Shown: in pieces, positions 1,932-22,682 of the stretch | Position numbering within the stretch: the first letter of the stretch is position 1 | Layout: every line of letters begins with the position of its first letter | Origin: an uncultured Pelagibacteraceae bacterium | Lineage (GTDB): Bacteria; Pseudomonadota; Alphaproteobacteria; Pelagibacterales; Pelagibacteraceae | Direction: 5' to 3' | Assembly: GCA_902549495.1 (NCBI GenBank) | Contig: CACCVU010000001.1 | Span: 28,615 to 92,614 of the forward strand | DNA length: 64,000 nucleotides | Program-made: the position numbers and the translations under genes | Notes under the pieces: generated by a model | The model's input: the letters and a program-made list of their open reading frames with translations, nothing else | What the model was told of the DNA's origin: nothing | The model's database searches: none

Positions 1932-2828
1932 ATGGATAAAAAATTGAATTTTGCCGTTATATTTAATGCTAATGCAGCAGGTGGTAGAAAACTTAAATTA
2001 ATTAATAAGGTTATTTATCTTTTAGAAAAAAATCACCTTGTAGATCTTTTTAAAACCGAAAGCGAAGATCATGCAAGAAAAGTTTTTAAAGAATTATCTA
2101 ATAAAAAATTTGATCGGTTAGTATTTGCTGGCGGTGACGGGAGCGTATGTTTTGGTATTAATGAAATGTTTAAAAGTGATAATCTAAAAGACAAATTAGT
2201 AGGTTACATACCTGCTGGCACTGCAAATATTTTACAAATAGAAACTCAAATTAAGAAAAAGGCGGAGGAGATTTACAACGTCCTCGTATCAGATAATCAT
2301 AAGAAAATTTCATTAGCAAAAATAAATGATAAGTACTTTTTCTTGATGGCTGGTGTAGGTTTTGACTCTCGAATTGTTGAGTCCATAAATATTAATATTA
2401 AAAAGTATCTTGGAAAAGTAATTTTCGCTTTAAAAGGTTTTCAGCATTTTTTATTTTTAAAAAATAATAAAATGGAGGTTGAGGTAGATAATGAAAAAAT
2501 TATGGCTGATTGGATTTTATGTACTAATTCAAAATACTATGCTGGTCCCCATTCTATAACAAATGATACCAATATATTTGAAAAGAGGATAGTGGCTTAC
2601 ATATTTAAAGACCTGACTAGAATAAAATTACTTTATTATGTTTGGTTGATTTTAACCAAAGGTGACTTAACTCCTGCAAAAAGTGTAATTAAAAAAGAAT
2701 TGAACAGATTAAAAATAAATGGTGTAAACAATAAAGTTCTATCACAGGTTGATGGTGAAAATTGTGGTTACGTAAACAGTCTTGAAATCCAAAAAACAGA
2801 CAGATTTATAAATTTATTAGTTCCGTAG
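1932..2828 (+). CDS. Diacylglycerol kinase family lipid kinase (YegS/DagK-like)
   Basis: IFNANAAGG, AGGDGS, IPAGTAN, MAGVGFDS, QVDGE motifs. Confidence 0.9.
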   Translation: MDKKLNFAVIFNANAAGGRKLKLINKVIYLLEKNHLVDLFKTESEDHARKVFKELSNKKFDRLVFAGGDGSVCFGINEMFKSDNLKDKLVGYIPAGTANILQIETQIKKKAEEIYNVLVSDNHKKISLAKINDKYFFLMAGVGFDSRIVESININIKKYLGKVIFALKGFQHFLFLKNNKMEVEVDNEKIMADWILCTNSKYYAGPHSITNDTNIFEKRIVAYIFKDLTRIKLLYYVWLILTKGDLTPAKSVIKKELNRLKINGVNNKVLSQVDGENCGYVNSLEIQKTDRFINLLVP

Positions 2829-2930
2829 GATTTTCTAAATTTTTTCAACTTTTAGTTTAAAAGATTTTTCTTAATTTAATTTGAAAAATTTTTTAGATTG
2901 TTTTAGATTTTTCTTTTTTGGAGGAACAAT

Positions 2931-3128
2931 ATGAAAAAAAAGTTAAAAAAAAACGAAAAGAAAAAGAAAAAAATACTAAAATCAATCGATAAGCTTAAAA
3001 ATAAGATAAGCACTAAACAAAAAAAACTATCAAAGATTGATCTAAAGATAGCTAGTATCGAGAAAAAAATCGCTGAAAAAAGAGCTAACAAAAATAAAGA
3101 ACCTATCACAGCATCTTTAAATAATTAG
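2931..3128 (+). CDS. Small lysine-rich coiled-coil hypothetical protein
   Basis: 65-aa ORF with strong SD (GGAGG) upstream and a hairpin downstream. Confidence 0.65.
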   Translation: MKKKLKKNEKKKKKILKSIDKLKNKISTKQKKLSKIDLKIASIEKKIAEKRANKNKEPITASLNN

Positions 3129-3147
3129 TTTATAAAGAAATTAAATG

Positions 3148-3171
3148 CCCCTGATTTAAAAATATCAGGGG
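3148..3171. terminator. Hairpin terminator between convergent genes
   Basis: CCCCTGAT-ttaaaaat-ATCAGGGG. Confidence 0.8.
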
Positions 3172-3172
3172 T

Positions 3173-3517
3173 TTACTTTAATTTACCAAAAAGGTTTAAA
3201 AGTATTACTCCTGAAACAATTAAAATTAATCCAACATTAGCATAAAGATCAGGAGTTTGATTATATTTAAATATACCAAATAATGTAACTGCTGTTATCG
3301 TTAATGCTCCATAAGATGCATATGCAGTTGACACAGGAATAATGCTCATCGCTTTAGACAAACAAAAAATGCAAATGATAATACTTAAAATACAAAAAAT
3401 TGTTGGGCCGAGTTTTGTAAAACTTTGGGTAGTTTTCAAAAAACTGTTAGATGCTATACCGGTAATAATAGCTAAAAATAAATAAATATATCCTGAAAAT
3501 AAACTAAGACTTTTCAT
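3173..3517 (-). CDS. SMR/DMT family small multidrug transporter
   Basis: Four hydrophobic helices, LKTTQSFT, IPVSTAYA, GLILIVSGVILL; the usual TM1 Glu is not evident. Confidence 0.8.
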   Translation of the reverse strand: MKSLSLFSGYIYLFLAIITGIASNSFLKTTQSFTKLGPTIFCILSIIICIFCLSKAMSIIPVSTAYASYGALTITAVTLFGIFKYNQTPDLYANVGLILIVSGVILLNLFGKLK

Positions 3518-4463
3518 TATACTTTCCCAAACTAAATTGACCTCGATCACGAAAACGGACTAGCCATTTGACCATTGCTTTTTCTACATCTGCAGGCTCA
3601 ATGTCTAGATCCTTAAGTGTTAAGTGATTATTTGATACAATATTATCTTGTTCTGAGAGTATCTCACATTGATCTCTTGTAAGAATAGGAGGAAAAGGTA
3701 ACAAATCAGTTATGGCACTTTGAATTTTTGCAAGAGGCATAGGCATCTGAATAATTAATCTTTTTTTTCCAATAGCTTGCATAATAGACTCTATCATTTC
3801 TTTAAAAGTTAAAATTTTAGGTCCTCCTATCTCATAAATTTTGCCAAAATTATCTTTCAATTCAATTGCTTTCATTATTGCTTTAACAACATCAGCTACT
3901 AATATTGGCTGAAATTTGTAACGAAGATTTGGTATAGGGATTACAGGAAAAAAACTAAGTCGTGCAAAAAGGTTGCTGAAGTTTGAAGAATGACTCTCAA
4001 CAACAGAGGGTCTAAGTATAACAGAATTTTTAAAATTATTTAATACATTTATCTCCCCTTGAAATTTTGATCTTTGATATAACGAGCGACTTTCTTTAGA
4101 TGCGCCTATGGCCGAAACTTGAATCAGCTTTTCAACATTTGACCTTGCACAAATTTTTGCAATCGCCTCAGGAAGCTTTGCATGTAGTTTATAAAATTTT
4201 TGTTTTCTTGTTTCATAAAGAATGCCAACAAGATTAATTACAACATCAGAATTTTTAATTGCATTTTCAACTTCACTTAAATTTTCAGTATTCCATTCTA
4301 ATAATTCAATAGCTCCAGGTGTGGCTTGCGTCTTCAAATGTCCATTTTGGAAAGCTGACCTTGTTACACAAATAACTCTATAGTTTTTTTTGATAAGAGG
4401 CCCGATTAAATTTGATCCGATTTGACCAGACCCACCAAACAAGGTGACAATTTTATTTTTCAT
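3504..4463 (-). CDS. Complex I NDUFA9-like NAD-dependent epimerase/dehydratase
   Basis: LFGGSGQIG Rossmann motif, VINLVGILYE, FQPILVADV, YEIGGP. Confidence 0.85.
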   Translation of the reverse strand: MKNKIVTLFGGSGQIGSNLIGPLIKKNYRVICVTRSAFQNGHLKTQATPGAIELLEWNTENLSEVENAIKNSDVVINLVGILYETRKQKFYKLHAKLPEAIAKICARSNVEKLIQVSAIGASKESRSLYQRSKFQGEINVLNNFKNSVILRPSVVESHSSNFSNLFARLSFFPVIPIPNLRYKFQPILVADVVKAIMKAIELKDNFGKIYEIGGPKILTFKEMIESIMQAIGKKRLIIQMPMPLAKIQSAITDLLPFPPILTRDQCEILSEQDNIVSNNHLTLKDLDIEPADVEKAMVKWLVRFRDRGQFSLGKYNEKS

Positions 4464-4482
4464 GATATTAATTAAGAATTAT

Positions 4483-5106
4483 ATGAAAATTCATAAAATA
4501 CAAGGCGACTTAACTACAGAAATAACATCCAAAATTAAAGATTACTGCAGTATTGATTGTGAGATGCAGGGCTTAAAACCTGACAGAGATAAATTATCGA
4601 TTGTGTCTTTAACTGCTGACGAAGAAAACGTTTATATTATTCAACCTAATAAAGATTATAAAGCTCCTAATTTAGTTTCAATTTTAGAAAATGAAAAAAT
4701 TTTAAAAATTTTTCACTTTGCAAGAATGGACGTTCATTTTTTAGATGTATATTTAAAAACAAACGTTAAAAATTATTACTGCACTAAGCTAATGTCTCGA
4801 CTTGCTAGAACGTGGACACAAAACCATGGCCTTAAAGACCTCACTTCGGAGATTTGTAAAGTCAAATTGGATAAAAAATATGGTAGTTCGACGGATTGGT
4901 CCAAAGGATTGGAGTCAATTTCAGATAACGAACTTAATTATGCCGCAAAAGATTGCTTTTATCTTAAAAAAATTAAAGACTCTTTAGAAAAAATTTTGAA
5001 AAGAGAAAACAGGTTTGATTTATTCGTAAGTACCATGAATGGTTTAGAAAGTAGAATTAAATTAGATAAGGCAGGGTTTAAAGATCCAGATATTTTTGAA
5101 CATTAA
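4483..5106 (+). CDS. rnd: Ribonuclease D-like 3'-5' exonuclease
   Basis: SIDCE, KIFHFARMD, CTKLMSRLART, YAAKD (DEDDy); upstream of kdsD as in other alphaproteobacteria. Confidence 0.85.
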   Translation: MKIHKIQGDLTTEITSKIKDYCSIDCEMQGLKPDRDKLSIVSLTADEENVYIIQPNKDYKAPNLVSILENEKILKIFHFARMDVHFLDVYLKTNVKNYYCTKLMSRLARTWTQNHGLKDLTSEICKVKLDKKYGSSTDWSKGLESISDNELNYAAKDCFYLKKIKDSLEKILKRENRFDLFVSTMNGLESRIKLDKAGFKDPDIFEH

Positions 5107-6080
5107 TGAGAAAAAATAATTATATTGCACTTGCAAAAAAGGCTTCGAGTATTCAAATAAATGAATTAAAAAAAATAAAAAAAGTTTTCAACCATTCCTT
5201 TGTAAAAGCAGTTGACCTTATCTTAAATTGTAAAGGAAAAATCATATTTGCAGGCGTTGGAAAATCAGGTTTAATCGCTAAAAAAATTTCAGCAACTTTT
5301 TCCAGTGTCGGAATACCAAGCTTTTTTTGTGACCCTGCTCAAGCACTACACGGAGATATGGGCCAAATAGAAAAAAAAGATGTTCTAATTATTTTTTCAT
5401 ATTCTGGAAATACTTCCGAACTTAACAATATGTTAAAGTACGCAAATAGATATAGGATTAAAGTGATCGGTGTTGCCTCTAAAACAGATAGCATTCTGTT
5501 AAAAGCAAGTGATATAAAATTAGTTCTCCCAAAAGTGAGAGAGTCAGATGTCACTGGTATGGTGCCAACTTCAAGCACAACAATAACATTACTTTTGGGT
5601 GATTGTTTAGCTACAACAGTAATGCATCAAAAAAAATTTTCTAAAGAAAGATTTAAAATTTTTCATCCTGGAGGGAATATTGGAAACTCTTTGCTGCTAG
5701 CAAAAGATATAATGATTGGTGGTAATAAAATGCCAGTAATTAGTTATAAAAAAAGTTTTAAAGAAGCTCTTAAAATTATGAATAAAAAAAAACTTGGTAT
5801 AGTTGTAATTCTTAAAAATAGATTTATTAAAGGTCTTGTGACTGACGGAGATTTAAGAAGAGAACTGAAGAATTTTTCCAATAGAAAAAATCTTAACGAT
5901 TTTATGACTAAGAATCCATTAGTAGTAAACGAGAATATGCCCGCTTCAAAGGCATTAGCAATAATGAATGAAAAAAAAATAACAAGTTTGTTAATTGTTT
6001 CTGATAAAGATTATAAAAAGGGCAACAAAGTTTTAAAAGGAATTATTCACATTCATTTTCTTTTACAAAAGGGTATCTGA
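5106..6080 (+). CDS. kdsD: Arabinose-5-phosphate isomerase (KpsF/GutQ, SIS+CBS)
   Basis: GVGKSG, HGDMG, SYSGNT, PTSST, FHPGG, TDGDLRR. Confidence 0.95.
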   Translation: MRKNNYIALAKKASSIQINELKKIKKVFNHSFVKAVDLILNCKGKIIFAGVGKSGLIAKKISATFSSVGIPSFFCDPAQALHGDMGQIEKKDVLIIFSYSGNTSELNNMLKYANRYRIKVIGVASKTDSILLKASDIKLVLPKVRESDVTGMVPTSSTTITLLLGDCLATTVMHQKKFSKERFKIFHPGGNIGNSLLLAKDIMIGGNKMPVISYKKSFKEALKIMNKKKLGIVVILKNRFIKGLVTDGDLRRELKNFSNRKNLNDFMTKNPLVVNENMPASKALAIMNEKKITSLLIVSDKDYKKGNKVLKGIIHIHFLLQKGI

Positions 6081-15734: not shown

Positions 15735-16950
15735 ATTATTTAACAAATCTGTTAAGTTTGGTCTTACAAGAATTAAACTTGCTCTCAATTTATTAGGAAA
15801 TCCAGAAAGAAAACTTAAAAACGTCATTAGCGTACTTGGAGAGTCAGGAAAATTCACTACGTTATGGTCATTAAAAAATTTCATAGAAGCGAACAATCAA
15901 ACTGTATCAACTTATACTTCGCCGTCAATTTTTGATATTCGAGATAGATACTATATGGGAAAAGGATATTTATCTTATAAAGAAATTAAAGAGACTATTA
16001 AAAAAATTGAAAAGTTAAAAATTCCCTTAACTGTGTATGAAGTTCTTACTTTAGTTTATGTAATAAATGCCTCCAAACTAAATGTAGATTATTTTATTAT
16101 AGAGACAGGAGCGCTGTGGAAAAATGATTGTTCGAATATATTTTTTTTCCCGCTCGCTCAAGTTGTTACAAATATAAATCTTCAACACAAGATATTTCTT
16201 AAAAAGAAAACTCTTGATGAAATAATAAAAGAAGATACAGGGTATTTATCCAGCTTTAGTAACATATATATAGCAAAACAAACTCCATATGTATTAAAGA
16301 AGGCTAAACTTTATTTGAAAAAAAATAAAAGTATAATCCATTATCCAAGTTCTTGGAGATTAATAAAAAAAAATAATCTTTATTTTTACCAAGATAAGTC
16401 AACAAAAATTAAGCTTAATGCTAAAAATGTACATAGCGAAGGCATGTTTAGCAATATTGCTCATGCTATCAAAATAGCTTTAGATTTAAATATCAGCAAA
16501 AAAGTTATAGAAAAAACTATTCCCAATCTAGCTTTTCCAGGAAGATACGATTATTTAAAAAAAGGTAAAATAAAAAAAATGTTACATAAAAATGAAATGA
16601 TAATGATAGATGGTGCTCATGCACCAGCAGACTCGTTGAATTTGTATAAATATCTTAAAACAATAAGATTACCCGTATATGGTGTTTGGGCTATGTCCAA
16701 AAATAAAGAGCCAGATGAATTCATTAAAAACTTGAAAGGTATTTTTAAAAAGATAGTTACCATTCCTATAAAAGACGAAGATTCCGTTTCTGCCAAAAAA
16801 CTCAACAAAATAGCCAATAATAATAAAATTAAGTCTGAAGCAGCAAAAGATTTTAAAGATGCATTAAAAAAAATCAGTAGTAATGAAAAAAAACTTATCT
16901 GCTGCTTCGGTAGCCTATATTCCGTTTCAAATATATTAAATCAAAACTAA
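15697..16950 (+). CDS. folC: Dihydrofolate/folylpolyglutamate synthase (highly divergent)
   Basis: GLTRIK..LGNPE, YTSP, FPGR, IDGAH, GSLY; synteny. Confidence 0.88.
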   Translation: MSKLIYQQLARHKLFNKSVKFGLTRIKLALNLLGNPERKLKNVISVLGESGKFTTLWSLKNFIEANNQTVSTYTSPSIFDIRDRYYMGKGYLSYKEIKETIKKIEKLKIPLTVYEVLTLVYVINASKLNVDYFIIETGALWKNDCSNIFFFPLAQVVTNINLQHKIFLKKKTLDEIIKEDTGYLSSFSNIYIAKQTPYVLKKAKLYLKKNKSIIHYPSSWRLIKKNNLYFYQDKSTKIKLNAKNVHSEGMFSNIAHAIKIALDLNISKKVIEKTIPNLAFPGRYDYLKKGKIKKMLHKNEMIMIDGAHAPADSLNLYKYLKTIRLPVYGVWAMSKNKEPDEFIKNLKGIFKKIVTIPIKDEDSVSAKKLNKIANNNKIKSEAAKDFKDALKKISSNEKKLICCFGSLYSVSNILNQN

Positions 16951-17267
16951 ACGTTTGCTTTTATCCAAGCTGTAACTGTTTCGTAATCCAAGGCTCCAAC
17001 TTTTTGGGAAACTACCTTCCGATTTTTTATTATGAACATTTGAGGGATGGATCTGATTCCAAATTCGGTCGCAGTCTCCACACCATCCTTATCAATTTCC
17101 ATAGAAACAAAATTTACATCAGGAAACGACTCCGATGCTTTTAAAACCACAGGGGTGAGTTGATGACATGGCCCGCAAAAATCTGCTTGAAATTTTATTA
17201 CTGTTGTTTTCGGGTTATCTAAAACTTCTTTTTTATAAGTTTCGTCTGTAACTTTTTTTATCGGCAT
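16947..17267 (-). CDS. trxA: Thioredoxin
   Basis: FCGPC active site, GIRSIP cis-Pro loop, VGAL. Confidence 0.92.
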   Translation of the reverse strand: MPIKKVTDETYKKEVLDNPKTTVIKFQADFCGPCHQLTPVVLKASESFPDVNFVSMEIDKDGVETATEFGIRSIPQMFIIKNRKVVSQKVGALDYETVTAWIKANV

Positions 17268-17311
17268 AAGGAAAATTATAAATATTAATGATAAAAGTCA
17301 ATTTTTTAAAA

Positions 17312-17512
17312 TTAATTATATATTGCAATCTGTTTATAACATTGAGGTTTTGTCCTGCTCCGGCCCACTTCAATTCTCTGGCCGGTATCTTTGACGCAAT
17401 AGATATAATAATAAAATTCGTTGTTTTCGTAGTCTCTTACTTCTTCAATTCGAATTTCTGTAATTGAGTTTTCTAATTCTTTATTATTATGTAGCTTAAT
17501 GATATTTGTCAT
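17312..17512 (-). CDS. Small hypothetical protein
   Basis: 66-aa ORF overlapping the upstream ORF in the same operon-like run. Confidence 0.6.
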   Translation of the reverse strand: MTNIIKLHNNKELENSITEIRIEEVRDYENNEFYYYIYCVKDTGQRIEVGRSRTKPQCYKQIAIYN

Positions 17513-17903
17513 TAGTATCTTTTTTATGATTGCCGTTATGAAGATGCTTATTACTTTTAACTAATAATGGTGTCACCTCATCCATTAATTCTGAATATTC
17601 TTGTTTTAATCTATTTAACCTTTCTTTCTTATCTTCCGCATCAATATATTTTTTCATTATTTCAACATCCACTACAGCTCTTTCGTAATCACGCCTATCT
17701 TTTAAGTAATAAAGATAGTTTAAAATATTTGTAGGTAAGTTTATGATCCAAAGCATTAAAGTTGTTAAGGGTAATCTAAATAGTAATTTATACTCTGTTT
17801 GTTTATAAAGTTCTTTGTAAGTAAAATAATCTTCCATTTGCCTCATATATTTAATTCTACCTTTAATACTCTTTTTAAAATGATAATAAATTCTTGTTTT
17901 CAT
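17496..17903 (-). CDS. Hypothetical protein with central hydrophobic segment and C-terminal coiled coil
   Basis: ORF; ATG 17903 lies just after the exonuclease I stop. Confidence 0.65.
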   Translation of the reverse strand: MKTRIYYHFKKSIKGRIKYMRQMEDYFTYKELYKQTEYKLLFRLPLTTLMLWIINLPTNILNYLYYLKDRRDYERAVVDVEIMKKYIDAEDKKERLNRLKQEYSELMDEVTPLLVKSNKHLHNGNHKKDTNDKYH

Positions 17904-17907
17904 ATTT

Positions 17908-19347
17908 TTAAATATATTTCTCGTAGCTTGATTGCATATTAAAAAGATACTTATCAAGTTTAATTAGTTTTTTCATTTTTTCATTATCTTCATCATTTTC
18001 AGCTTGTAGTTTTAAAGTATCGAGTCTTGCAAACTGCGCTGGTATATTTGTAAATACTGAGTCGTCTCCATCATTATTTAAAATAAAACTAGCTATTCTT
18101 TTTTTTATTCTTGTATAATCTCGTTTACTTAATATCTTAATAAAATCTTCTTCGGTATGTTCCTCATAAATAACCATTTCGGCTAAAGTCTTTATTTCGT
18201 CTCTTTTAAATTTATTAAATATCTTTTTCTTTTCATCATTTGTTTCCGCCAGATTAAATGCATCCATTAATTTTCTCTCTTCAATAGATGGGTTGAGTTT
18301 ATAAATCATTTGCTCAGGCTCTAATTTTCGCTGATCATTTTCCATTTTTTCATCTAGTCTCTCTTGTTGAATTTTCTTAATTTTATTTAATATTTCCTCT
18401 CTATTTTGACTTATAACTTTTTGTCTTCTCTCTAACTCTTTCATGCCTAAATTTTTATAAACATCATCATTAAGCGCATATTTCTTATCCATTAAAAGAG
18501 GGGATCGATTTGCTTTTTGTGTTCTGCACCACTTAGGAGAAGCATCCAGTTCTTTTTTAAATGCATCAGTGTCATTTAAAACACTCAGAATTTCTTCTGG
18601 CGATTTACGAAGATCATACGTCAAGTACCACGAAGGGTAGATCCCTTCTCCAAGTAACGTTCCCGCATATATCTTTGCAACCCTCCATGCTTCCATCCAA
18701 CAAAATATTGGCGTCGATAGAAGTTTTGGAAGTACGTCAGATTTTCTTCTTAAAGCTAGGGACGCCTTAAAAACTTCAGGAGCTTTTTTAGCTAACAACT
18801 CTCCTAACTTCATAGTACTTACAGTATCTCCATAACTAGTATGAGCTACAGTTTTTATATTATTCACTCTACAAACCGACTCGAGTTTATATATGGGTAA
18901 ATTTTTATCGTTTAGTTCAAAAGAGATAGAATTAGGTGCAAAAAGATTTACTGATCTCACGACAGGTAATAAATCAAACGAGTCGGAATTAGTCAGATAA
19001 GGCCAACGTAAATTCACAAATAAACTATGATTTAGTAAGACTGTATCGTAGTTATGATTATTAAATCCAACAAATATAGCTCCCATTTTTTTCCACTTAG
19101 TAAATTTCTCTTCTAATTTTTTTAACATCACGCCGTAAGTATCTTCTTTCATTAGATCATCTATATCTAATCCATTTACAAGCATCGCATCAACCTCAAG
19201 CGGTCTACTTTTTCGTGGCCTAGAAAGTAGTGTAAACTGGTCTAATATTTCAAACTTATCTGTCGTCAGCACTCCCGAAATACTCAGTACGCTCGCCTTG
19301 GTACATGCGCCGCTGTCACTTTCTATATCAAACCAACAAAAATACAT
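17908..19347 (-). CDS. sbcB: Exodeoxyribonuclease I-like DEDDh 3'-5' exonuclease (divergent)
   Basis: FDIES (Exo I), GFNNHNYD (Exo II), YKLE, AHTSYGD (Exo III), YDL motif; 479 aa. Confidence 0.8.
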   Translation of the reverse strand: MYFCWFDIESDSGACTKASVLSISGVLTTDKFEILDQFTLLSRPRKSRPLEVDAMLVNGLDIDDLMKEDTYGVMLKKLEEKFTKWKKMGAIFVGFNNHNYDTVLLNHSLFVNLRWPYLTNSDSFDLLPVVRSVNLFAPNSISFELNDKNLPIYKLESVCRVNNIKTVAHTSYGDTVSTMKLGELLAKKAPEVFKASLALRRKSDVLPKLLSTPIFCWMEAWRVAKIYAGTLLGEGIYPSWYLTYDLRKSPEEILSVLNDTDAFKKELDASPKWCRTQKANRSPLLMDKKYALNDDVYKNLGMKELERRQKVISQNREEILNKIKKIQQERLDEKMENDQRKLEPEQMIYKLNPSIEERKLMDAFNLAETNDEKKKIFNKFKRDEIKTLAEMVIYEEHTEEDFIKILSKRDYTRIKKRIASFILNNDGDDSVFTNIPAQFARLDTLKLQAENDEDNEKMKKLIKLDKYLFNMQSSYEKYI

Positions 19348-19354
19348 TTTTATT

Positions 19355-20716
19355 TTATGCTCTTTTCTTTTTTAAAATATTGTTTTTATTATCATCTTCA
19401 AATAATCCATCCGGAAGAATTTTTCTTATTGAAGGATGATTGTTAATGTTTTTCATATAAGTTGTTCTTCGATACTTATTAACTAAAGCATCTATCTCGA
19501 ATAATTTTAAATCTTTTTTGTTTAATATTTGATTTATATAATCTATTTCTTCATCATTAGTATTTTGATTTCTTCTTAAAAACTCTGGTATTTCAAAATC
19601 TACTTCTTGATTTGAGGTATTGTTAAATAAATTTGATAATTCTTTTGGTGCTGTGAAACCTGATTTCCATATCACTTTTCCAAGAACTCTAGGATTTCCA
19701 TCATTGTCGAACGCAGGGAAGGTTTGTCTAGAATATTCTTTGTTATCAGGTAATGAAATTATTTGAAACGTGTCTTTAAATTCAGAAAATTGCAGCCTCC
19801 TGACACATAATCCTTTCATCTCATTTACTAAAAATAAACCACTTTCAAATTCCTTATTGTTTTTTAAATCTTCTCTATTATTTAAAGTTACTCTTTCAAT
19901 TAAACAATCATCTCCTAATGAAATTGTAGGATGCATATAATCGTCATTTGCTTTAAAAAAGAACAAATTGGAAAAATTTTTAATTTTGGATTTTTTTCTA
20001 ATTGCACTTTTTTTTATTAAAAAACCACTTTCTTGGTCATTTATAAAATTGATTTTTTTATACTCTGAAGGTGAAAAAAAATTAGGTAAAAATATTTTTC
20101 TAAGACTTTCACAAATTACATAAAAATTTTTAATAGCATTTATTTCAATTTCAAAATTTTTAAGTTCTTTTAATTTTTTTTCTCCCAGTTCGTCTTTATC
20201 ATTTTTAGTTAAATTTTCTATACAATCAAAACCTCTTAAAGATAAAATATAATTTTCATATTTTTCCGACTCTACTATTGAAATATATTTGTTTATTATA
20301 ACTGATTCATCTTGATCAAAAATGTCATTCTTATTTATTGTTACATTATCCCCTTCTCCAATTTTTATTCCCCTGTTTAAACTCGAGATTGATAATATAT
20401 GGTGTTCTAAAGCAGGGATCAGGAGTTTCTCAATTACACCTCCATGTTCGAGTATCAAATTATAAAATAAGTCAAACCTACTTAAGTTTTCCTTGGGTTT
20501 ATGTTTTTTAGCTAAAGCGCGATAAATACTTAAAAGAAAAAAATAAGAGAAGCTTCTCGGAAATATTTTTTTATCATATCGATAAATATATCCAACTAGC
20601 GAATTTCTATGATGGCTTAAAGTTAAAGAACACTGTTGTTGTGATAAGTCTGCAAACTTTAATAAATTAGTTAAAAGTAGCTTATTGATAGCCAGCAATG
20701 TATTTTTAGAATCCAT
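19355..20716 (-). CDS. HTH-like + inactive S24 (LexA/CI-type) domain protein with FtsZ-tail-like peptide
   Basis: N-term LKFADLSQQQCSLTLSHHRNSLVGYI (XRE-like); DDYMHPTISLGD, LCVRRLQ, DNKEY, VLGKVIW (S24 pattern); DFEIPEFLRRNQN. Confidence 0.7.
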   Translation of the reverse strand: MDSKNTLLAINKLLLTNLLKFADLSQQQCSLTLSHHRNSLVGYIYRYDKKIFPRSFSYFFLLSIYRALAKKHKPKENLSRFDLFYNLILEHGGVIEKLLIPALEHHILSISSLNRGIKIGEGDNVTINKNDIFDQDESVIINKYISIVESEKYENYILSLRGFDCIENLTKNDKDELGEKKLKELKNFEIEINAIKNFYVICESLRKIFLPNFFSPSEYKKINFINDQESGFLIKKSAIRKKSKIKNFSNLFFFKANDDYMHPTISLGDDCLIERVTLNNREDLKNNKEFESGLFLVNEMKGLCVRRLQFSEFKDTFQIISLPDNKEYSRQTFPAFDNDGNPRVLGKVIWKSGFTAPKELSNLFNNTSNQEVDFEIPEFLRRNQNTNDEEIDYINQILNKKDLKLFEIDALVNKYRRTTYMKNINNHPSIRKILPDGLFEDDNKNNILKKKRA

Positions 20717-20769
20717 GCTCTTTATATATACTTATTTTATGCAGAAAAAAAGAAAAAAAAGTGTAAATT

Positions 20770-20786
20770 TACTGTTGACAACAGTA
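20770..20786. promoter_or_regulatory. Perfect palindromic operator-like site containing TTGACA
   Basis: TACTGTTG-A-CAACAGTA in the divergent intergenic region. Confidence 0.65.
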
Positions 20787-20809: not shown

Positions 20810-20889
20810 ATGAGTAAAAATAAGACAAATATTAGGATGTCCTTTCCTTTCTACCTTTCTGATCCTTTTACTTGTCTTTTTTTACTCAT
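20810..20889 (+). ncRNA. Candidate structured RNA: long hairpin with CU-rich loop
   Basis: ATGAGTAAAAATAAGACAAATATTAGGAT pairs imperfectly with ATCCTTTTACTTGTCTTTTTTTACTCAT; loop GTCCTTTCCTTTCTACCTTTCTG. Confidence 0.55.
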
Positions 20890-20909: not shown

Positions 20910-21293
20910 ATGCCTAAAGTGAGAAAAAATAAGTCTAAAGATAACGTTGTACCCTTTAATAAACCTAAGGTTGATAAAGTAGCCGAGGAAAAACGTGAGT
21001 TAAGACAAAGTGAACAAGATAGACTAAATGCTGTGATAAAAGAAAAATGCAGTGAAATTTTAGAAATAATTGATTTAAGCCAAATAGAAAAACAATGGGG
21101 CTTATATGCATTTTTATTTCATTGTAAACAAATAGCTGCATTTGATCTACACCCTTCAGAGTATGTTCGTATTAATGATGCAACAAACAAAGAGATCATT
21201 AAAAACCAAAGAGAATATTTAGAAGAATCATTCCCTGAGTTTGTAAGAGACGAATCAAATACTGAAGAAAATACAAAAAAGGTATTACATTAA
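20910..21293 (+). CDS. Hypothetical protein
   Basis: 127-aa ORF with AAGGAG SD; stop overlaps the rmuC start. Confidence 0.75.
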   Translation: MPKVRKNKSKDNVVPFNKPKVDKVAEEKRELRQSEQDRLNAVIKEKCSEILEIIDLSQIEKQWGLYAFLFHCKQIAAFDLHPSEYVRINDATNKEIIKNQREYLEESFPEFVRDESNTEENTKKVLH

Positions 21294-22477
21294 TGTTAGA
21301 ACCAATATTATATATATTCGTAGGGTTTGCATTAGCTTCTGTTGTTTGGTTTTTTTATTTTAAAAACAAAAACTCAAACTTAATTGATAGATCTGTTGTC
21401 GAAGAAAAAGAAAATTATATTAAAGACGCAGATCTATTAAACAAAGAATTAGAAGGCAAACTTTTAACAGTGCAAAAAGAAGTTGAATTAATAAATAAAG
21501 CAAAAGAAGAAGTAGGTAAAACTCTCGCTTTAGAAAGAGCAAATGCAAAAGAACAATTAAAAACAATTAATAATGTCGAGAAGTGGAGAGTAAATTCTGA
21601 AAAAGATTTAAAAAAATATGACGAATATGTCAAAGATACACTAAATTTTGTAGATAAATTAACAGGTGATGTTAAATACCAAGGGGATATAGGAGAGAAA
21701 CTATTATGTAAACTCTTGGAAATTCATGGCCTTCAAATTAATACGGATTTTATTGTACAAGAAGGGAATCAAGTTTACCAAGAAGTAAATGATGAAATTT
21801 TGCAAAGAGTTAGACCGGATGTAATTTTGAATCTTTCAAAAAACGAGCATGTGGTGGTTGACAGTAAAGTTTCACTTGTCGACTGGAAAAACTTTGCAAA
21901 TGAGAAGAATGATGAAAAAATTAGAAAAACTCACCTGAAAAAACACGTAAGTGCTATAGATAAACATATAACAACTTTATCTGGAAGAAATTACAATAAG
22001 CTACTCAACAAAAATGTTTTTCCGAGCGTGATATTATTTATACCTTTTGTGCCAGCATATCTGGCTGCAATAGAAGCTGATAATGAATTAATGGACCGAG
22101 CATATAAGAAAAATGTTATCTTGGCTTGTCCGGGGTCTTTGTTGCCAGTAATTAAAATTATTGAGACAATAAAAAGCAAAGATAAACAAATGGAAAATAT
22201 TAAAGATATTTCCAGTAATGCAACTTATTTGTATAATAAATTTGTTTTTCTAAAAAAAAATCTTAAATTAGCAATTAAGTCCTTCAGAGACCACTCTATT
22301 AATCTACAAAAAGTTATAGATACTGGTTGGGGAAATAAATCTTCTTTAGAAAAATCTTTTGAAAAATTTAAGAAGAAACACGGCTTGAACGAATCCAAAG
22401 AGATGCCCACAAGTACCTTAGAGGAAAATCAAATTAGCGATTTAGATGATCCTGAAGAAAAAACATCTGTAAATTAA
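21293..22477 (+). CDS. rmuC: DNA recombination protein RmuC family
   Basis: N-terminal TM, coiled coil, QGDIGE, RPDVILNL, VVDSKVSL (PD-(D/E)xK). Confidence 0.88.
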   Translation: MLEPILYIFVGFALASVVWFFYFKNKNSNLIDRSVVEEKENYIKDADLLNKELEGKLLTVQKEVELINKAKEEVGKTLALERANAKEQLKTINNVEKWRVNSEKDLKKYDEYVKDTLNFVDKLTGDVKYQGDIGEKLLCKLLEIHGLQINTDFIVQEGNQVYQEVNDEILQRVRPDVILNLSKNEHVVVDSKVSLVDWKNFANEKNDEKIRKTHLKKHVSAIDKHITTLSGRNYNKLLNKNVFPSVILFIPFVPAYLAAIEADNELMDRAYKKNVILACPGSLLPVIKIIETIKSKDKQMENIKDISSNATYLYNKFVFLKKNLKLAIKSFRDHSINLQKVIDTGWGNKSSLEKSFEKFKKKHGLNESKEMPTSTLEENQISDLDDPEEKTSVN

Positions 22478-22478
22478 T

Positions 22479-22682
22479 ATGAAAAAACACTTAGAGTATA
22501 CTGATGCAAAATCTAATAAGTTCTGGGAGATAGAGCTTAAAGATAAATCGATAAATATTTGCTATGGCAGAATTGGTATTGAAAATCCTGCTAAACAAAA
22601 CAAATCTTTTCCATCTGCAGATTTAGCTAAGAAGTATTACGAAAAAAAATTAAGAGAAAAGATTAATAAGGGTTATAAATAA
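22479..22682 (+). CDS. Stand-alone WGR domain protein
   Basis: SNKFWEI, YGRIG, EKINKGY. Confidence 0.85.
   Translation: MKKHLEYTDAKSNKFWEIELKDKSINICYGRIGIENPAKQNKSFPSADLAKKYYEKKLREKINKGYK

Follow-up and report, generated by a model that had tools for sequence, protein, structure and literature searches.

Why does a protein built like a repressor carry what looks like the tail of the cell division protein FtsZ? This question was raised by a gene in a 64,000-nucleotide stretch of DNA (contig CACCVU010000001.1 of GenBank assembly GCA_902549495.1, positions 28,615 to 92,614; hereafter the window) from an uncultured Pelagibacteraceae (SAR11) bacterium. The open reading frame (ORF) reported at 19355-20716 in an initial annotation of the window is real; it lies on the minus strand and encodes a protein of 453 amino acids (aa), called REG here (label P0001). 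Our tentative answer, to which we give slightly less than an even chance, is that REG acts as a local repressor and that a protein which reads the FtsZ tail also binds the FtsZ-like tail of REG, coupling a cassette of genes to the division machinery. The assembly, of single-cell type, spans 682 kb and is 58% complete. Neither ftsZ nor ftsA was found in it, and FtsZ and FtsA of congeners were therefore used for comparison. The gene and the parts of its product are as follows.

19355..20716, minus strand: REG, whole gene, 453 aa plus stop; XRE-HTH/dead-S24 regulator-like protein with an FtsZ-like tail
20426..20707, minus strand: XRE-type helix-turn-helix (HTH) domain, aa 4-97, from VIA structural matches
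20078..20419, minus strand: helical middle region of no recognised fold, aa 100-213, with the family-conserved blocks PALEHH and NFY..CE.LRK
19652..20062, minus strand: S24 (LexA/UmuD/CI-like) beta domain, aa 219-355, without the Ser/Lys dyad and the Ala-Gly site
19571..19600, minus strand: look-alike of the FtsZ C-terminal peptide, DFEIPEFLRR, aa 373-382, in the disordered linker aa 354-386
19418..19555, minus strand: small helical module, aa 388-433, the core of which (aa 397-416, nt 19469-19528) resembles FtsZ S8/H10
19358..19417, minus strand: C-terminal end, aa 434-453, with a second LF-acidic motif (GLFEDD) and KKRA; aa 443-453 are disordered in the AlphaFold2 (AF2) model

The FtsZ-tail-like peptide of REG

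The peptide EVDFEIPEFLRRNQN, to which the initial annotation had drawn attention, was found exactly where it had been placed (aa 371-385, nt 19562-19606), and an NLF motif precedes its core DFEIPEFLRR at aa 362-364. FtsZ of six same-genus genomes ends in EEDFEIPAFLRKQKF or ..RRQKF, that of the large sister genus in DDLEIPAFLRRQKN, and that of another family of the order in DLLEIPSFLRRQSK. Compared with EDFEIPAFLRK in same-genus FtsZ, DFEIPEFLRR of REG conforms to the consensus [DE]-x-[DE]-I-P-x-F-L-[RK]. The match with the FtsZ tail thus holds for the FtsZ of congeners, whereas the genome's own ftsZ is not in the 58%-complete assembly.

The pattern is rare in these genomes. [DE].[DE]IP.FL occurred once in 239,638 ORF residues of the own genome, namely in REG. 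When D-x-E-I-P-x-F-L was back-translated and searched in four Pelagibacteraceae genomes that were 94-99% complete, it was found exactly once per genome, at the end of ftsZ; the reversed-pattern control gave zero matches.

Conservation among homologues, on which the initial annotation had made its claim depend, was found both near and far. D373, F374, I376, E378, F379, and L380 were invariant in 14 homologues of 63-94% identity, whereas the linker around these residues varied in sequence and length. An exhaustive profile search gave full-length relatives of REG at about 25-32% identity, and many more were obtained in a second search. The motif [DEQNS][IVL]P.[FWLMY][LIF] was present past residue 200 in 209 of the 253 family proteins, typically as EQDFEIPEFLS, EEDIEIPMFLN, DDYEIPSFLN, or EDDLEIPLFLN, and D-x-E-I-P-x-F-L itself in roughly 30 of the 51 non-redundant members. 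A clear peptide is missing from most members without an S24 domain, in which the LF motif and the module are all that is kept, and also from several S24-bearing members. In an abundant clade of 365-395 aa (P0125), the motif lies 7-10 residues from the C-terminus, and in the family a distance of 8 residues is frequent, as it is for the FtsZ peptide. The low-complexity N/S/T linker that had been described before the peptide is short and a character of the REG subgroup, and does not hold for other members, in which 8 residues separate the peptide from the C-terminus.

An AF2 model of REG was built on the 51 non-redundant family sequences (pLDDT 82, pTM 0.71) and replaced an earlier, poor one from the 14 close homologues alone (pLDDT 46.6). 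In this model, aa 1-213 form helices, followed by a beta domain (aa 219-351), a disordered segment (aa 354-386), and the helical module (aa 388-433). The linker segment holding the peptide had a pLDDT below 50, indicating that the peptide is exposed and not buried in the predicted fold.

Two further FtsZ-like elements in the tail

The likeness to FtsZ goes further than had been noticed, as two more FtsZ-like elements are present in the tail. The first is an LF-acidic motif. TP[DK]LFS[ED], in some cases slightly altered, is present in all the SAR11 FtsZ linkers examined, a good distance upstream of their C-terminal peptides; we know of no partner assigned to this motif. In addition, FtsZ of the window's genus has ELFDQD just before the C-terminal peptide. 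An LF-acidic motif was found in more than 90% of the REG family members, and in several of them it is literally TPDLFSE, the same as the FtsZ linker motif. The correspondence can be seen within a single genome (G005), in which REG reads QSLFDTNEDFMIPEFL and FtsZ reads KLFDQD..EEDFEIPAFL.

The second element is the core of the small helical module, which resembles the stretch GKDLKLFEVDE.VNK of FtsZ strand S8 and helix H10. By BLAST, 13 of 20 residues were identical between aa 397-416 of REG and ITGGKDLKLFEVDEVVNKIR in the globular domain of FtsZ, and the FtsZ stretch shared with the module amounts to 17-20 residues. A profile of 28 module instances matched every Pelagibacteraceae FtsZ with E-values of 6e-6 to 2e-3, whereas among about 1800 background ORFs with the same composition none did better than 0.14. 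When the last 102 residues of REG were searched against four Pelagibacteraceae genomes, FtsZ was returned in all four, once or twice each, by matches to the tail peptide, to the H10 stretch, or to the two together. FtsZ was the sole match in G022 and the best match in G005. The whole-genome E-values of this tail search were only 0.01-0.1 per segment. No Tubulin or FtsZ_C match was found in REG with Pfam at E-values up to 10, and Pfam gave nothing significant, and no FtsZ_C, in ten distant family members.

The order of the elements was also compared. In the members without S24, the module, the LF motif, the (degenerate) peptide, and a basic end follow each other collinearly with FtsZ. In REG of the window, a unit of LF motif and peptide precedes the module, and a unit of LF motif and degenerate peptide follows it. 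The C-terminus is [KE][KE]xA throughout the family (KKRA in REG), with an invariant last Ala.

Taken together, these sequence similarities are read to mean that the tail either descends from the C-terminal part of FtsZ or has long imitated it; each is short alone, and the case draws its strength from three elements that point to one protein. The tail could also be a relic or a coincidence, that is, a captured 3' fragment of ftsZ or a product of chance and composition, which would have no partner in common with FtsZ and whose conservation would serve some other contact. The shortness of every single similarity (8-20 residues), the E-values of the tail alone, which are only those given above, and the richness of these proteins in K, N, E, and I would fit such an origin. 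However, three separate elements lead to one protein among more than 1000, background ORFs of the same composition score far lower, and the sequence drifts on both sides of key residues that do not vary. We consider a relic or a coincidence very improbable.

The placement of the H10-like mini-module varies among family members (P0131, P0140, P0141, and P0135): it is found in the N-terminal region, in S24, or after S24. Judging from these sequences, the mini-module behaves like a mobile insertion across the family.

Domain architecture of REG

The architecture proposed by the initial annotation, an HTH followed by a dead S24 domain and an exposed FtsZ-tail-like peptide, was supported by fold matches and by an alignment of the dyad positions. 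The N-terminal part of the model (aa 4-97) matched about 30 structures of the XRE-type HTH by VIA, with Z scores of 4.6-7.4, a range in which helical matches can be generic; Stl, C.EcoT38IS, C.BclI, C.AhdI, the N-terminal domain of CapH, SinR, and 434 repressor were among those with Z scores of 5-7.4. The S24 domain was matched to LexA, UmuD', lambda CI, and 186 CI by VIA with Z scores of 10-12.3 over 98-117 residues (root mean square deviation 2.5-3.8), and to LexA, UmuD, and CI by Foldseek with TM scores by target of 0.56-0.68.

Sequence profiles gave a weaker picture. PF00717 (Peptidase_S24) was found at aa 246-349 with an E-value of 0.013 and 15.7 bits, below the cut-off of 23.3, although a precomputed PF00717 match is present in the P0125 clade of the family. 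The best curated match was NCBIfam NF048000 (ECH_1013 family; E-value 2e-5, 24.4 bits against a cut-off of 300). No HTH match was found in the Pfam scan of REG. Profile searching, which had been suggested as a check on both domains, therefore points to S24, below threshold and with a clear fold match, and does not recover the HTH.

The catalytic positions were examined in an alignment of REG and other family members, nine in all, with the LexA and the UmuD-like protein of the own genome. Aligned with this LexA, REG has Tyr (in DDYM) at the catalytic Ser and Arg (in VRRL) at the catalytic Lys, as the initial annotation had read them. The dyad was absent in all nine family members, which have Tyr, Asn, or Leu at the Ser position and, apart from one with Gly, Arg at the Lys position, and neither an Ala-Gly nor a Cys-Gly cleavage site was found at the aligned position. 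Since the dyad is absent, self-cleavage of the S24 domain of REG, which had been called unlikely, is impossible. A normal LexA of 239 aa is encoded on another contig of the same genome, and REG is therefore not the SOS repressor; by its sequence, it is an extra, non-cleavable member of the repressor class.

Separately, 18 stretches of a 4736-aa metagenomic protein (P0142) match positions 22-50 of the family profile, in the HTH region.

Candidate readers of the tail

Which proteins might recognize such a tail? Searches of five genomes that were 94-100% complete gave no MinC, ZipA, ZapD, or SepF. Most genomes of the genus encode a divergent FtsA, about 398 aa long and with an amphipathic helix at its C-terminus, and ClpX was present in the own genome. 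As the only textbook reader of the FtsZ tail that was found, FtsA is the prime candidate, and a protease is the second. In predictions of the complex between a congener's FtsA and aa 352-453 of REG, the scores were 0.49, 0.00, and 0.14 against a mark of 0.32, which speaks neither for nor against binding.

The second candidate leads to another explanation, in which the tail is a borrowed degron: the FtsZ-like tail and the invariant C-terminal Ala would form a proteolysis signal, and REG would be removed via the ClpXP/ClpAP route of FtsZ. Repressors of the S24 class are normally inactivated by proteolysis, yet self-cleavage is impossible for REG; the protease route would replace it, possibly in step with the cell cycle. 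The last Ala of [KE][KE]xA is foreign to FtsZ and typical of signals read at a free C-terminus. E. coli FtsZ has dual ClpXP sites, one in the linker and one C-terminal, which the two separate FtsZ-like motifs of the REG tail recall, and the genome encodes ClpX. However, the ends KKRA, KETA, and KEIA are unlike the classical LAA type, the turnover of FtsZ by Clp proteases is not known from work on SAR11, and the S8/H10-like module is left unexplained. We regard the degron as unlikely, though it ranks next after the main explanation.

The FtsA proteins of the genus (L073-L090) scored 76-138 bits against a TIGR01174 cut-off of 176 and are 17-19% identical to FtsA of the sister family; their gene lies about 15 kb from ftsZ and is not adjacent to it. 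The match of the Pfam FtsA domain PF14450 in the own genome proved to be MreB, which adjoins likely mreC and mreD genes, named by position only.

The REG cassette

REG heads one of two divergent operons, the other features of which are as follows.

17908..19347, minus strand: ExoI (SbcB)-like gene, starting 7 nt after REG (PDB ExoI, E-value 2e-9; PADLOC SbcB model, 2e-28)
16947..17957, minus strand: orf153, orf66, and thioredoxin genes, downstream of the ExoI-like gene and co-directional with it
20910..22682, plus strand: divergent operon of orf127, RmuC, and a WGR mini-protein (67 aa)
20770..20786, no strand: perfect 17-bp palindrome TACTGTTGACAACAGTA between the divergent operons, candidate operator

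The core of the palindrome was invariant in four otherwise diverged loci, and the palindrome occurs in one copy in the 682-kb assembly; other clades have TTGTCA-TT-TGACAA at its position. The gene arrangement was constant. An ExoI-like gene lies directly 3' of REG in every locus with a readable downstream gene, two distant homologues included, at a distance of 1-12 nt, and is directly next even to REG homologues of 28-30% identity. WGR and/or orf127 (both in most loci) adjoin REG in every REG locus examined, and the cassette arrangement was found on every longer contig or genome with a family member, in two genera.

In ordinary genomes of the order, this site is occupied by the genes for thioredoxin, ExoI, and RmuC, and REG, orf127, and WGR are missing from it. 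The ExoI-like protein (17908-19347) and RmuC (21293-22477) of the window are only about 30% identical to their same-genus versions. In a maximum-likelihood tree of ExoI, the REG-linked proteins formed one clade (100/100) apart from the stand-alone ExoI of the same genus, with the caveat of long branches. From this separate clade, we conclude that the locus is an accessory cassette replacing the core sbcB-rmuC one; together with the identity of about 30%, it suggests replacement of the cassette by recombination. The initial annotation had placed REG at the centre of a divergence zone. As a replication landmark, this zone did not stand up: the GC skew of the contig (C1) showed no such landmark at the locus, and what lies there is the accessory cassette in place of the ordinary sbcB-rmuC locus.

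With the family profile, REG was detected in 12 of 401 genomes of the order (about 3%), namely the own genome and 11 of the 274 genomes of one genus; a query with the single protein detected it in two of the 25 genomes of its own genus. Despite this rarity in genomes, REG is common in marine metagenomes.

The constant pairing with the ExoI-like gene raises the possibility that the tail imitates the tip of the single-stranded DNA-binding protein SSB, so that the acidic E-I-P-x-F motif would dock REG onto the co-encoded nuclease. E. coli ExoI binds the SSB tip, and the structure 3c94 is among the PDB matches listed for the ExoI-like protein. The SSB tails of the genus end in DDEIPF (DLDDEIPF), and the REG-linked ExoI forms its own clade. 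On the other hand, the SSB tip is an acidic run leading to I-P-F, in which the last Phe must follow Pro immediately and have its carboxylate free, whereas the REG motif is internal or has 7-10 trailing residues and contains one extra residue between Pro and Phe. The F-L after this extra residue, the preceding LF motif, and the H10-like helix all point to FtsZ and not to SSB, and ExoI also accompanies the members in which the peptide is missing. Imitation of SSB thus appears quite improbable.

PADLOC defence models gave no match for REG, orf127, WGR, and orf66. The best matches of the ExoI-like protein and RmuC were the generic reverse transcriptase-associated SbcB and RmuC models, and no reverse transcriptase was found in the REG locus; orf153 had one weak match to an oligonucleotide-cyclase model (E-value 7e-4). 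ExoI-like and RmuC genes are core neighbours in the order, usually without a regulator. An imperfect inverted repeat of 22 nt (82% complementary, with a 23-nt loop containing CCTTT repeats) was observed at 20817-20883 of the window, just upstream of the ribosome-binding site of orf127; the closest locus has the identical repeat, whereas G005 and L004 retain it only in part. In L004, WGR is followed by a 1124-aa Upf1-like helicase with an RNase_H_2-like domain (2358-5732), which is absent from the window.

Proposed coupling of the cassette to cell division

These observations are consistent with REG being a local regulator of an accessory DNA-processing cassette in Pelagibacteraceae. The XRE-type HTH, with the dead S24 domain as a dimerisation module, would most likely bind the conserved palindrome between the two operons, REG-ExoI-like-orf153-orf66-trx and orf127-RmuC-WGR. 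In place of self-cleavage, REG has a disordered C-terminal region in which the C-terminal part of the lineage's own FtsZ is repeated in condensed form, probably through evolutionary derivation from it. The parts repeated are the S8/H10-like helix, the TP[DK]LFSE linker motif, and the peptide D-F-E-I-P-x-F-L-R. Proteins that read the FtsZ tail would then also read that of REG, and the location or availability of the regulator, and hence the expression of the nuclease cassette, would be tied to the state of the division machinery.

Several points weigh against this explanation. In REG of the window, the motif is internal, 73 residues from the end, whereas FtsZ has its peptide at the very end; where FtsZ has a small Ala, Ser, or Thr between Pro and Phe, the family has Glu, Met, or Leu; no co-variation with the host FtsZ was seen at position -2, which is F, I, or Y in the family members of genus g6 and L in FtsZ; and about 20 of the 51 non-redundant members have no clear D-x-E-I-P-x-F-L. 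The fold scores of the HTH (Z 5-7.4) lie where helical matches of models can be generic. The own genome, being 58% complete, is without ftsZ and ftsA, so that congeners stand in for it, and the binding of REG to FtsA is what we infer.

The same sequence evidence could be explained by a brake on division. The tail of REG, when REG is abundant or released from DNA, would take up FtsA, perhaps with the H10-like element in contact with FtsZ itself, so that cytokinesis would be delayed during DNA processing by ExoI and RmuC; a function like that of SulA would thus be built from a piece of FtsZ. The cassette does consist of DNA-processing genes, and overproduced C-terminal fragments of FtsZ block division. 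Nevertheless, an autoregulated repressor is expected at a far lower copy number than FtsZ, there was no sign of damage induction, and the canonical LexA is encoded elsewhere in the genome. A brake has, in our estimation, little chance of being correct. A transcription factor at its typical copy number is a poor competitor for FtsZ, and for this reason a regulator controlled through an FtsZ-tail reader was rated above a division inhibitor.

A stronger form of the coupling would be a checkpoint, in which a repressor fused to a piece of FtsZ represses the ExoI-like, RmuC, and WGR genes at the single operator while its tail directly engages FtsA and perhaps the polymerisation face of FtsZ, so that division and DNA processing are coupled reciprocally. 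We consider such a checkpoint distinctly unlikely. In a variant of it, the tail would be a decoy that reports the occupancy of FtsZ-tail readers, for example by a phage factor.

Comparison with known systems

REG was compared with five groups of known proteins. Like LexA, lambda CI, and UmuD, it has a DNA-binding domain at the N-terminus and, after it, an S24 beta domain that shares their fold (Z 10-12.3), adjoins a palindrome in its own promoter region, and heads genes of DNA-repair type. It differs from them by the lack of the Ser/Lys dyad and of the Ala-Gly site, by about 110 extra helical residues between HTH and S24, and by a tail of about 100 residues. NF048000, a Rickettsiales family of putative transcriptional regulators with HTH and S24, is matched by the S24 part only, and with its score far below the cut-off REG is not a member.

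The tail of Pelagibacteraceae FtsZ has counterparts in REG for D-[FL]-E-I-P-x-F-L-[RK], for TP[DK]LFSE, and for S8/H10, in the same order in the members without S24. REG has no tubulin/GTPase domain, however, and the linker of FtsZ is about 10 times as long as that of REG; Pro is followed by Glu, Met, or Leu in place of Ala or Ser, and the end is KK-x-Ala in place of RRQKN or RKQKF.

SlmA, Noc, MatP, and ZapT are site-specific DNA-binding proteins that are functionally linked to FtsZ or its partners, and SlmA contacts the FtsZ tail (PMC4117426). Whereas these proteins bind FtsZ or Zap proteins, REG resembles the FtsZ tail itself and should therefore bind what FtsZ binds; moreover, it has one candidate site in 682 kb and not many. 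With the SOS-type and SOS-independent division inhibitors SulA, SidA/DidA, YneA, and AciT, REG shares a possible link to both DNA-processing genes and division. Each of these inhibitors is a small protein dedicated to that role and induced by another protein as its regulator, whereas here the regulator carries the tail, and none of them is described as a copy of the FtsZ tail in the literature searched.

The initial annotation knew of no described protein with this architecture, and the literature searched likewise contained no regulator with a copy of the FtsZ tail and nothing on the REG family, which suggests that an XRE/S24 repressor with an FtsZ-derived tail is unprecedented there. From its sequence, the locus also suggests an undescribed link between a cassette of DNA-repair genes and cell division. 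SAR11 are the most numerous marine bacteria and have very few regulators, and the coordination of their DNA metabolism with division is poorly understood. If the proposed coupling is true, REG would be the first DNA-binding protein that copies the docking tail of FtsZ, as far as the searched literature shows. It would offer a direct handle on the FtsZ-tail readers of SAR11, including that of the unexplained TP[DK]LFSE linker motif, and would show how an S24 repressor without self-cleavage can be rewired to a different input.

Other observations

A phage origin of REG was searched for by tblastn among 50,697 phage records, without a match, and a PDB sequence search with REG gave only chance matches to calmodulin and UNC5D. 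The promoter and terminator scan gave nothing above the shuffled expectation. Directly 5' of the REG start codon (window 20717-20735), a conserved TATATATAAAG was observed in all clades, including L099-L104; by analogy with lambda cI, it may be the -10 box of an mRNA that is leaderless or has a very short leader.

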